64,000 nucleotides of DNA, taken from contig CAVQLA010000003.1 in assembly GCA_963713285.1 (NCBI GenBank), positions 4,514 through 68,513 on the forward strand, in the 5' to 3' direction. This document shows positions 56,565-59,144 of this stretch, piece by piece. This DNA comes from an uncultured Chloroflexia bacterium (GTDB lineage Bacteria; Chloroflexota; Limnocylindria; Limnocylindrales; CSP1-4). Within the stretch, counting starts at the first letter, position 1, and each line of letters opens with the position of its first letter. The position numbers and the translations under genes are program-made. The notes beneath the pieces were generated by a model. The model had not been told where the DNA came from and made no database searches. It worked only from the letters and a program-made list of their open reading frames with translations.

Positions 56565-59144
56565 GTGTCTCAGTCCCTCTCCGTCGAGTTCGGTGGTCGC
56601 ACGCTGACCATCGAGACCGGCCGCATGGCCCGCCTCGCCGGCGGCGCCGTCACCGTGCGCTACGGCGACACCGTCGTGCTCGGCACCGCGAACCGCGCCG
56701 ATCCGCGGCCCGGCCTCGACTTCTTCCCGCTCACGATCGACTTCGAGGAGCGGATGTACGCCGCCGGCAAGATCCCCGGCGGCTTCATCAAGCGCGAGTC
56801 GCGCCCGTCCGAGGCGGCGATCCTCGCCTGCCGCCTGACCGATCGCCCGATCCGGCCGCTCTTCCCCGAGGGCTACAAGGACGACGTGCAGTGCGTCATC
56901 ACGGTCCTCTCCACCGACCAGGAGAACGACCCCGACATCCTCGGCACGATCGCCGCATCGGCCGCGCTGACGATCAGCGAGATCCCGTTCCAGGGCCCCA
57001 TCGCCGCCATCCGCCTGGGGCGGATCGACGGCGAGTTCGTCATCAACCCGACGATGCCGCAGCTCGAGGACAGTGAGCTCGACCTCGTCGTCTCGGGCAC
57101 CCGGGACGCGATCATGATGGTCGAGGCCGGGGCGAAGATCCTCTCCGAGGACGTGATGGCCGAGGCGATCCTGTTCGCCCATCGCGCGCTCGAGCCTCTC
57201 ATCGACCTCCAGCTCGAGCTGCAGAAGCTCGTCGGCAAGCCGAAGCGCGTGCCGTTCCTCGACGCGGGCACGGAGTCGGTCCTCGACTTCGCGGCCAGGG
57301 CCAGGGCCGGCGCCGAGTTCGTCGTCGTCGACGTCGAGACCACCGGGACCAACCCGGAGATGGCCGACCTCGTCGAGGTCGCGGCCGTCCGCGTCAAGGG
57401 CGGCAAGGTCACCGACCGCTGGTCGACCTTCGTCAACCCGGGCCGGCCGATCTTCGGCAACCAGATGCACGGCATCACGGACAAGGACGTCAAGGGCGCC
57501 CCGACCCCGGCCGAGGCCGCCAGGAGGGCCCTCGACTTCGTGGGCGACGCCACGATCGTCGGCCACTCGGTCGGCTTCGACATCGCGTTCCTCGAGGCCG
57601 CGCTCGGCGACGGGACGCGGATCGAGAAGGGCCGCTACCTGGACACGCTGACGCTGGCCCGCGACGGCTACCCGGATCTTCCCAGCTACACGCTCGGGGA
57701 GCTCTCGAAGTTCTTCGGGATCCAGCTCCAGCAGGCCCATCGCGCCCTGCCGGACGCGGAGGCCACGGCCGAGCTGCTCGTCACCATCGCCAAGGAGCTC
57801 CCGGGTCGCCTCGATGCGCTCGCCGAGGGCATTGCCGACTCCATCCGCGCCCAGCGTTCGTCGAAGGACGAGGCGAAGGCGAAGCTGGACGCCGCCCGCC
57901 GGGCCGCCCGCGTGAGCAAGGGCCTCTTCGGCCTCGTCCACAAGAAGACCGCCCGGAAGCTGACCCTCGGCGAGGGGATCCGGATGGACGGCCGCGGGCT
58001 CGACGAGATCCGCCCGATCACCGTGGAGGTCGGCCTCGTGCCGCGCGCCCACGGCTCCGGCCTCTTCACCCGCGGCGAGACGCAGGCGCTGACCGTCGCC
58101 ACGCTCGGACCGTCCTCGGACGTCCAGCGGATCGACACGATCAGCCCCGAGCTCGAGAAGCGCTATCTCCACCACTACAACATGCCGCCGTACAGCACCG
58201 GCGAGAACAAGTTCATGCGCGGTCCCGGTCGCCGCGAGATCGGGCACGGCATCCTGGCCGAGCGGGCGCTCATCCCGGTGCTGCCGTCGAAGGACGACTT
58301 CCCGTACGTCATCCGGCTCGTGTCGGAGTGCGTGACCTCCAACGGCTCGACGTCGATGGCGTCGACCTGCGGTTCCACGCTCGCCCTCATGGACGCCGGC
58401 GTGCCGATCTCGGCACCCGTCGCCGGCGCGGCCATGGGCCTCATGTCCGAGCCCGACGGCAGCTTCGTCGTCCTGACCGACATCCTCGGCAAGGAGGATG
58501 CCTTCGGCGACATGGACTTCAAGGTCACCGGGACCCGCGACGGCATCACCGCCCTCCAGATGGACATCAAGGTCAAGGGCATCAACGAGGCGATCATCCG
58601 CGAGGGGCTGGCCAAGGCCCACTCCGCGCGCATGACGATCCTCGACGCGATGACCCAGGTCCTCCCGACCGCCCGCGAGACGATGAGCGACTTCGCGCCG
58701 CGCATCACCAAGATCAAGATCAACCCGGAGAAGATCCGCGACATCATCGGCAAGGGCGGCTCCATGATCCGCAAGATCCAGGAGGAGACCGGCACCGAGA
58801 TCAACGTCGAGGACGATGGGACGGTGGAGATCGCGGCCGTCCAGGGCGAGAACGCCCGCAAGGCGATCCACTGGATCGAGAGCCTCACCCGCGAAGTCGA
58901 GATCGGGGCCCTCTACCTTGGCACCGTGACCCGGATCATGGGCTTCGGCGCCTTCGTCGAGATCCTGCCGGGCAAGGAGGGCCTCGTCCGCATCGGCGAG
59001 CTCGCCGACTACCACGTGCCCTCCGTCGAGGACGTCGTGTCCGTCGGCGACGAGGTGATGGTCGTCGTGACCGAGGTCGACCGCCAGGGCCGCGTCAACC
59101 TGTCCCGCAAGGCCGCGATGCAGCGCCACCTGGCCAAGGGCTAG
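56565..59144 (+). CDS. pnp: polyribonucleotide nucleotidyltransferase (PNPase) with nested DEDDh exonuclease domain
   Basis: PH1 ([26 protein letters not shown]), PH2 ([25 protein letters not shown]), KH ([16 protein letters not shown]) and S1 ([30 protein letters not shown]) domains. An extra ~165 aa (aa ~250-412) carries ExoI/II/III motifs. AAGGAG SD before the GTG. Confidence 0.93.
   Translation: [859 protein letters not shown]

Follow-up and report, generated by a model that had tools for sequence, protein, structure and literature searches.

The 64,000-nucleotide stretch of DNA analysed here (the window: positions 4,514 to 68,513 of contig CAVQLA010000003.1, assembly GCA_963713285.1, from an uncultured Chloroflexia bacterium) contains a gene for polynucleotide phosphorylase (PNPase), pnp, whose product is predicted to carry an intact, full-length DEDDh 3'-5' exonuclease domain nested in the helical linker between its two RNase PH cores. 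Our analyses confirm that this architecture is real, lineage-wide and undescribed. The gene is a single-copy-type housekeeping gene in an rpsO-pnp operon of Limnocylindrales-type Chloroflexota, the Limnocylindrales being an uncultured group of soil and freshwater bacteria. Few RNA-decay enzymes have been studied as intensively as PNPase, whose domain plan is commonly regarded as invariant between bacteria and human mitochondria. In the present case, an entire lineage has fixed a second, mechanistically different exonuclease in the poorly understood helical domain of the enzyme.

A DEDDh exonuclease domain in the helical linker of PNPase

A first-pass annotation of the window had reported an open reading frame (ORF) of 859 codons at 56565..59144 on the plus strand, and the ORF and all the peptides quoted from it are present in the translation. 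The gene begins with a GTG start codon located 7 nucleotides 3' of the Shine-Dalgarno sequence AAGGAG, and its product is, to judge from its sequence, a bona fide PNPase. It scores 937.3 bits against the NCBIfam equivalog model TIGR03591 (cut-off 525) and 932 bits against NF008805 (cut-off 471), both models being split into two stretches on the window protein. The Pfam matches follow the order RNase PH, RNase_T, RNase PH, KH and S1, which is the canonical PNPase order with RNase_T added. The excess over textbook PNPases had been put at about 120 to 160 residues; it amounts to 148 residues relative to the E. coli enzyme (711 residues). Features of the gene are listed below (pLDDT, predicted local distance difference test).

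56565..59144, plus strand: pnp ORF, an 859-residue PNPase with nested exonuclease (TIGR03591, 937 bits against a cut-off of 525)
56565..57230, plus strand: first RNase PH core (residues 1-222; Pfam RNase_PH and RNase_PH_C; aligns to residues 21-236 of PDB 5yjj)
57231..57311, plus strand: helical domain, N-terminal part (residues 223-249; AlphaFold secondary structure, pLDDT 73-92, and alignment to E. coli PNPase)
57312..57800, plus strand: inserted, predicted DnaQ-like DEDDh 3'-5' exonuclease domain (residues 250-412; Pfam RNase_T, PDB and Foldseek matches)
57321..57347, plus strand: Exo I motif VVVDVETTG (D256, E258), aligned to Exo I of PolC and DinG
57561..57593, plus strand: Exo II motif (D339), aligned to PolC and DinG
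57735..57767, plus strand: Exo III motif of the epsilon type, Hx4D (H392, D397), aligned to PolC and DinG
57801..57974, plus strand: helical domain, C-terminal part (residues 413-470; AlphaFold helices 394-429, 434-448 and 452-470)
57975..58664, plus strand: second (catalytic) RNase PH core (residues 471-700; Pfam RNase_PH at residues 481-614)
58227-58250, plus strand: GRREIGHG in the second PH core
58338-58355, plus strand: SNGSTS in the second PH core
58494-58523, plus strand: a further 10-residue motif in the second PH core
58701..58880, plus strand: KH domain (residues 713-772; Pfam KH_1, E=4.8e-12)
58896..59111, plus strand: S1 domain (residues 778-849; Pfam S1, E=2.7e-18)

The PNPase parts of the protein retain the residues associated with phosphorolysis and RNA binding. 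The first RNase PH core contains the RNA-binding loop FFPLT...GGFIKRE. In the second core, R556, R557, H561, S595, S597, D645, D651 and K653 match E. coli PNPase, for which R398, R399, H403, S437-439, D486, D492 and K494 served as reference, and the phosphate-, metal- and RNA-binding residues of this core are invariant in all 240 of the homologous clusters described below.

The surplus residues, 250-412, lie inside the helical domain at 57312..57800, where they had been placed. The Pfam model RNase_T (PF00929) matches residues 253-405 over its full length (profile positions 1-164 of 164; E=4.7e-28, 99.2 bits against a gathering score of 24) and, as had been expected, this match is nested between the two RNase_PH matches, with KH and S1 following. 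NCBIfam models for PRK07883 DEDD-exonuclease, DinG and PolC match the insert at E=1e-33 to 1e-45. In the PDB sequence matches, Exo motifs I, II and III of the insert are in register with those of the PolC and DinG exonucleases, and the residue numbering proposed for the catalytic set (D256/E258, D339 and H392/D397) proved correct. The full-length Pfam match, the catalytic residues and an RNase H-like alpha/beta fold all place the insert in the DEDDh superfamily. These matches lie well outside what chance would yield, and they support a single polypeptide with putative phosphorolytic and hydrolytic-type 3'-5' exonuclease sites, both of which look intact.

The borders of the insert were mapped by removing it in silico. 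With the 163 residues 250-412 deleted, the two BLASTP alignments to E. coli PNPase became one colinear alignment, in which residues 8-691 of the insert-deleted construct correspond to E. coli residues 10-695 at 50% identity; the canonical modules are therefore collinear, as the first-pass annotation had stated. The helical segments that remain (residues 224-250 and 413 to about 473) total approximately 87 residues against approximately 90 in E. coli PNPase, which argues for a clean insertion into the helical domain and not for its replacement. Every solved PNPase in the PDB aligns to the window protein as two blocks, with a gap at residues 222-457; for 5yjj, residues 6-221 and 458-852 of the query align to residues 21-236 and 316-709.

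Structure prediction agrees with these borders. In the full-length AlphaFold model, residues 195-480 are confidently predicted (pLDDT 83-96), and a 4-residue loop connects a helix at 237-247 to the beta-alpha DnaQ fold. An unbroken helix (394-429, pLDDT above 90) starts at the Exo III motif and ends in the helical domain. Since the helix bearing H392 and D397 continues as a helix of the helical domain, the exonuclease would be rigidly held. A separate AlphaFold model of residues 232-435 (pLDDT 82) was matched by Foldseek with a probability of 1.00 to structures of DinG, PolC, DnaQ, epsilon and RNase T. The best match was S. aureus DinG (9ii8, 6e-13), followed by PolC, DnaQ and epsilon, with RNase T lower.

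Recurrence and conservation in Limnocylindrales-type Chloroflexota

Among 5.8 billion proteins searched, at least 120 clusters formed at 90% identity match the window protein at 81-100% identity; a look-up of the exact window protein gave no entry. The clusters range in length from 857 to 864 residues, each combines PF00929 with the PNPase domains, and they come from independent NCBI, ENA and JGI assemblies, some of which have contigs as long as 2 Mb. With the most divergent genome copy (L013) as the query, at least 120 further clusters were obtained, and those with a source name are labelled Candidatus Limnocylindrales. As to which lineages share the insertion, a check suggested by the first-pass annotation, the architecture is common to at least 240 clusters and is conserved across a lineage of Limnocylindrales-type Chloroflexota. 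Among GTDB genomes (one per species), at least 14 loci contain the complete junction-spanning region, most of them labelled Limnocylindrales, Chloroflexia or Chloroflexota; among the matches listed, the next best after these cover the exonuclease part only, at 46% identity or less. In 14 of 14 loci (L001-L014) rpsO lies directly upstream of pnp, and in nine of them asd and udg follow downstream as well.

This recurrence in clusters and syntenic loci indicates an orthologous housekeeping pnp. An assembly chimera, or a gene-calling artefact fusing a dnaQ-like gene into pnp, has the unusual length of the protein as the sole point in its favour, and it is hardly conceivable given that independent NCBI, ENA and JGI assemblies supply at least 240 clusters with the architecture and that at least 14 GTDB species genomes have it with shared synteny. 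The reading frame, GC content, GC content at third codon positions (GC3) and codon frequencies are also continuous over both junctions of the insert. The insert has a GC3 of 0.98 and the remainder of pnp one of 0.93-0.98, in keeping with the earlier statement that the insert shares the codon style of its flanks.

Two of the 14 loci (L004 on DATLVO010000031.1 and L012 on DASRJS010000073.1) are short contigs with a Limnocylindrales-type rpsO-pnp pair, exonuclease included, that were binned as Verrucomicrobiia and Polarisedimenticolia. Binning contamination, and not horizontal transfer, is most likely the reason for their placement.

The catalytic residues of the insert are conserved. All 240 clusters have D256, E258, H392 and D397, and 239 of them have D339, the exception (P0090) being a frameshifted entry, so that the loss of DEDDh residues that a careful alignment might have brought out was not seen. 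The homologues fall into two deep branches with 54% identity in the insert as compared with 79-87% in the PH cores. Pairwise comparison of ten genomes gave ratios of nonsynonymous to synonymous substitution rates (dN/dS) of 0.17-0.19 for the PH, KH and S1 parts, 0.35 for the insert and approximately 0.5 for the flanking helical segments, although a GC3 of approximately 0.97 compresses dS and inflates these ratios, making their absolute values unreliable. The order of the ratios nevertheless shows that the insert is under purifying selection, which is less stringent than that on the cores but more stringent than that on the linker around it.

The truly divergent members (P0123, P0124 and L013) have approximately 54-56% identity in the insert. 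Nine representatives that seemed more distant, at 39-50% identity (P0136, P0137, P0160, P0162, P0165, P0172, P0230, P0169 and P0239), were rejected as frameshifted or fragmentary calls. Many database copies, mostly from long-read metagenome-assembled genomes, are frameshifted in or near the exonuclease region (L014 at 6282..6333; P0090, P0136, P0137, P0160, P0162, P0165, P0172 and P0230), and these frameshifts yield spurious divergent representatives in a library clustered at 50% identity.

A full-text search of approximately 8.3 million papers and preprints found no description of a PNPase with this nested exonuclease. The claim of novelty made in the first-pass annotation thus stands for the literature, while hundreds of database entries already contain the architecture without remarking on it. 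NCBI labels these proteins as PNPase, and JGI often labels them 'DNA polymerase III epsilon subunit family exonuclease'; hundreds of housekeeping PNPases now bear a label of that family. The insertion also provides a clean, synapomorphy-type marker for Limnocylindrales-like Chloroflexota.

Affinities of the insert and its possible function

Among PDB sequences, the insert is closest to the PolC exonuclease (9qpc, 6.6e-26; also 2p1j), followed by DinG (8zef, 6e-18) and pol III epsilon. RNase T (2f96) reaches only E=2.1e-5, as against 6.6e-26 for PolC, and no Orn or RNase T model occurs among the 25 best NCBIfam matches of the insert; neither family is its closest affinity. The insert also falls well below the equivalog cut-offs for DnaQ proper, scoring 76.8 bits against 222.7 for TIGR01406 and 67 against 196 for NF004316, and passes only the domain-level model TIGR00573 (73.1 against 71.5). 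The C-terminal polymerase-binding segment of DnaQ is absent, the domain being nested and having no free C-terminal tail. Given the failed equivalog scores, the JGI name is a domain label and does not imply orthology. We place the insert, on these matches, not with RNase T or Orn but in a PolC/DinG/Cho-like branch of the superfamily, where it represents a promiscuous cassette associated with DNA metabolism. The first-pass annotation had assigned it to the superfamily of pol III epsilon, RNase T and oligoribonuclease; membership of the DEDDh superfamily stands, whereas an affinity to RNase T or oligoribonuclease does not.

In a library of representatives at 50% identity, the closest relatives of the insert outside PNPase are 45-48% identical to it, and neither a donor gene nor a close stand-alone paralogue was found. 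Four apparent stand-alone paralogues (P0125, P0129, P0134 and P0154) turned out to be fragments of pnp genes. Several of the nearest relatives have unusual multi-exonuclease architectures: in P0144 (1045 residues), GIY-YIG and UVR motifs follow a tandem array of three RNase_T (DEDDh) domains, and P0148, P0158 and P0171 have two tandem DEDDh domains, with a BRCT domain in addition in P0148.

We propose that the DEDDh domain would be catalytically active as a 3'-5' exonuclease that does not depend on phosphate, and that it would provide PNPase with a second mode of attack on 3' ends, this one hydrolytic. The presumed trimer would then combine three phosphate-dependent phosphorolytic sites in the ring with three metal-dependent hydrolytic 3'-5' exonuclease sites. 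The likeliest substrates would be RNA 3' ends that are poorly phosphorolysed, such as short or duplex-proximal overhangs and RNA paired to DNA, and the hydrolytic mode would be of use when phosphate is low. B. subtilis PNPase digests the RNA of R-loops, according to a 2026 preprint (PMC13251995), and this class of substrate has been reported for B. subtilis DinG as well. RNA enters the ring of E. coli PNPase on the KH/S1 face, and the opposite face carries the helical domain. This domain flanks a side pore that leads to the active site and to which the traffic of nucleoside diphosphates and phosphate has been attributed; the domain is dynamic and affects catalysis (Nurmohamed et al. 2009, PMC2723993). 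By analogy, the exonuclease sites should lie on the ring face opposite KH and S1, near the side pore.

The analyses above show the architecture, the fold, intact motifs, their conservation and the distribution over the lineage, whereas catalytic activity, ring position and, above all, substrate are parts of this proposal that we infer. That the protein works as a PNPase and that its nested DEDDh exonuclease is competent for catalysis is highly probable. For the whole proposal, that is, an active nested exonuclease together with an RNA-end substrate, we estimate a probability of roughly 0.55. A more specific version holds that the two chemistries are physically coupled, with the DEDDh site beside the side pore taking over 3' ends or fragments left unfinished by the PH site, among them ends close to a duplex, the RNA of RNA-DNA hybrids and, under phosphate scarcity, any substrate. 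We regard this coupling as speculative and rather unlikely, although, if true, it would explain why the fusion is kept by an entire environmentally abundant oligotrophic lineage.

Several observations weigh against the proposal, the compressed dS values mentioned above among them. The PH cores, KH and S1 are predicted with low confidence in the full-length AlphaFold model (mean pLDDT 61), because the alignment was shallow and consisted of close homologues only, and the geometry relative to the channel and the pore is an extrapolation from E. coli PNPase. In the nearest relatives of the insert, the DEDDh cassette is joined to DNA-metabolism modules, namely GIY-YIG/UVR (Cho-like), BRCT, DinG helicase, FAN1-HTH/VRR-NUC and PolC, and B. 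subtilis DinG favours single-stranded DNA over single-stranded RNA (PMC12525004). By analogy with these proteins, DNA could be the real substrate of the insert.

A role in DNA-end or R-loop processing is accordingly a serious rival. The cassette might be a DNA exonuclease that serves PNPase in processing 3' ends during double-strand-break repair, recombination or replication restart. All of the closest relatives outside PNPase are fused to DNA repair or replication modules, DinG and PolC are the best structural matches, and in both B. subtilis and E. coli PNPase has a part in DNA repair and digests single-stranded DNA in the 3'-5' direction (PMC2709576, PMC3241651, PMC5379764). The preference of B. 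subtilis DinG points the same way, as does, weakly, the uracil-DNA glycosylase gene udg two genes downstream in conserved synteny. Set against this, the host protein is a housekeeping RNA-decay enzyme encoded in an rpsO-pnp operon, with KH, S1 and the FFRR-type loop intact, and no DNA-binding module was acquired along with the exonuclease. Cleavage of RNA is also within the range of DEDDh domains of the PolC/DinG branch, an example being DinG acting on hybrids (PMC12525004). We consider a DNA 3'-end role possible but doubtful.

The first-pass annotation had put forward, purely as a conjecture, the clearance of nanoRNA, in which the insert acts as a built-in oligoribonuclease that degrades in cis the 2-5 nucleotide limit products of PNPase. 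The short end products of PNPase do require a separate enzyme, a task carried out by the DEDDh exonuclease REXO2 for the PNPase-SUV3 degradosome of human mitochondria (PMC7261184, PMC9779919), and the pore bordered by the helical domain could let small products out (PMC2723993). However, a stand-alone NrnA-like DHH/DHHA1 gene that is conserved in the related locus L082 lies in the window at 52119..53144, and the insert resembles neither Orn nor RNase T. Orn and RNase T need to form homodimers, which is unlikely for a domain fixed on a trimer. Clearance of nanoRNA by the insert is therefore improbable in our judgement. It is less probable still, to the point of being very unlikely, that the insert is a non-catalytic module for nucleotide or oligonucleotide binding, gating (for example of access to the pore) or protein docking on the helical domain. 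While such a role would fit the dynamic nature of the E. coli helical domain and its influence on catalysis (PMC2723993), as well as the more rapid evolution of the insert relative to the PH cores (dN/dS 0.35 as compared with 0.17-0.19), all five catalytic residues and many neighbouring motif residues are kept over branches that share 54% identity in the insert. Inactivated DEDD domains usually lose their catalytic residues, and a purely structural role is unlikely because these residues are invariant. An active exonuclease that acts on RNA 3' ends poorly handled by phosphorolysis is the reading we prefer. In any event, these bacteria offer a natural experiment on the role of the helical domain and its pore, on the coupling of phosphorolytic and hydrolytic chemistry, and on how the roles of PNPase in RNA metabolism relate to those in DNA or R-loop metabolism.

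Genomic context and comparison with known systems

The pnp gene lies in a chromosomal core region, and there is no sign of a mobile element nearby. Three neighbouring features bear on the points discussed above.

52119..53144, plus strand: DHH/DHHA1 protein of 341 residues between rbfA and truB (best NCBIfam match NrnA)
56171..56455, plus strand: rpsO (ribosomal protein S15), directly upstream of pnp (Pfam Ribosomal_S15, E=3e-37)
56456..56564, plus strand: structured rpsO-pnp leader (RNA fold)

The fold of 56453-56570 has a predicted energy of -66.6 kcal/mol (z=-3.8 against shuffled sequences). It has a 9-bp GC hairpin after the rpsO stop codon and a second hairpin whose loop contains the Shine-Dalgarno sequence AAGGAG and whose pairing extends over the GTG start of pnp. 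This may be an autoregulatory pnp leader like that of E. coli. An Rfam scan of the window gave no family match, and a consensus scan around pnp detected neither a sigma-70 promoter nor an intrinsic terminator.

The DHH/DHHA1 gene, located 3.4 kb upstream of pnp, scores 71 bits against NrnA, far under the equivalog cut-off of 350 bits, so its assignment is at the level of an NrnA-like protein. Its DxD, DHH and GGGH motifs are intact, and locus L082 has an 88% identical homologue in the matching position between rbfA and truB. We regard its product as a candidate for a dedicated nanoRNase.

Upstream, the cluster at 43871..52122 on the plus strand comprises dxr, a gene for an rseP-like M50 protease, gcpE (ispG), nusA, infB and rbfA. 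Three genes downstream of pnp lies a gene for RNase J (61066..62748, plus strand) with beta-CASP, RMMBL and RNase_J_C domains, followed by ftsK. The RNase J-ftsK order is also found in L082, and two major RNA-decay enzymes are thus encoded close to each other on the chromosome. Two long ORFs on the minus strand, 52751..54910 (719 residues) and 56514..59822 (1102 residues), have high GC3 and no Pfam match. They were rejected as artefacts of a genome with approximately 72% GC, since they overlap real genes on the plus strand: pnp in the second case and, as comparison with L082 shows, the nrnA-like gene, truB and ribF in the first.

When compared with canonical PNPases (E. coli Pnp, PDB 3CDI and 3GCM; the S. 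epidermidis-type enzyme, 5YJJ), the window protein shares the order PH1, helical domain, PH2, KH and S1, the phosphorolytic and RNA-binding residues, and the rpsO-pnp operon with its structured leader. It differs in the DEDDh insert of 163 residues, which no solved PNPase has. By sequence, the insert is matched best by PolC-type DNA polymerase III (9QPC, 2P1J; E=6.6e-26, approximately 37% identity), whose DEDDh cassette is likewise nested, in that case within the PHP domain; the PolC-type relative P0197 shows PHP split around RNase_T. The host in PolC is a replicative DNA polymerase whose exonuclease proofreads DNA, whereas here it is an RNA phosphorylase. DinG (S. aureus, 8ZEF and 9II8; B. 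subtilis) is the best structural match (Foldseek, 6e-13) and also matches by its NCBIfam model (NF005981, 4e-39). In DinG, however, the DEDD domain is fused to the N-terminus of a helicase and is not nested, and it has no phosphorolytic partner site.

In outline, the architecture also resembles the eukaryotic RNA exosome, which is known to join a PH ring with an S1/KH cap to a hydrolytic DEDD 3'-5' exonuclease. In the exosome, the PH-like Exo9 ring is catalytically dead and Rrp6 (DEDDy, RNase D-like) and Rrp44 are separate subunits. Here, in contrast, the ring sites look active, and the DEDDh domain belongs to another subfamily and is covalently nested. We treat the resemblance as an analogy and not as homology of arrangement; if the coupling of the two chemistries were true, the enzyme would be a single-polypeptide bacterial counterpart of the PH ring of the exosome and its hydrolytic DEDD nuclease. 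A coupling of PNPase to a DEDD exonuclease in RNA decay is found as well in the Caulobacter degradosome with RNase D (PMC4245959) and in human mitochondria, where PNPase-SUV3 works with REXO2 (PMC7261184). Those exonucleases are separate proteins of the DEDDy (RNase D) and Orn subfamilies, whereas in the Limnocylindrales-type enzyme a PolC/DinG-type domain and the phosphorylase are encoded as one polypeptide.

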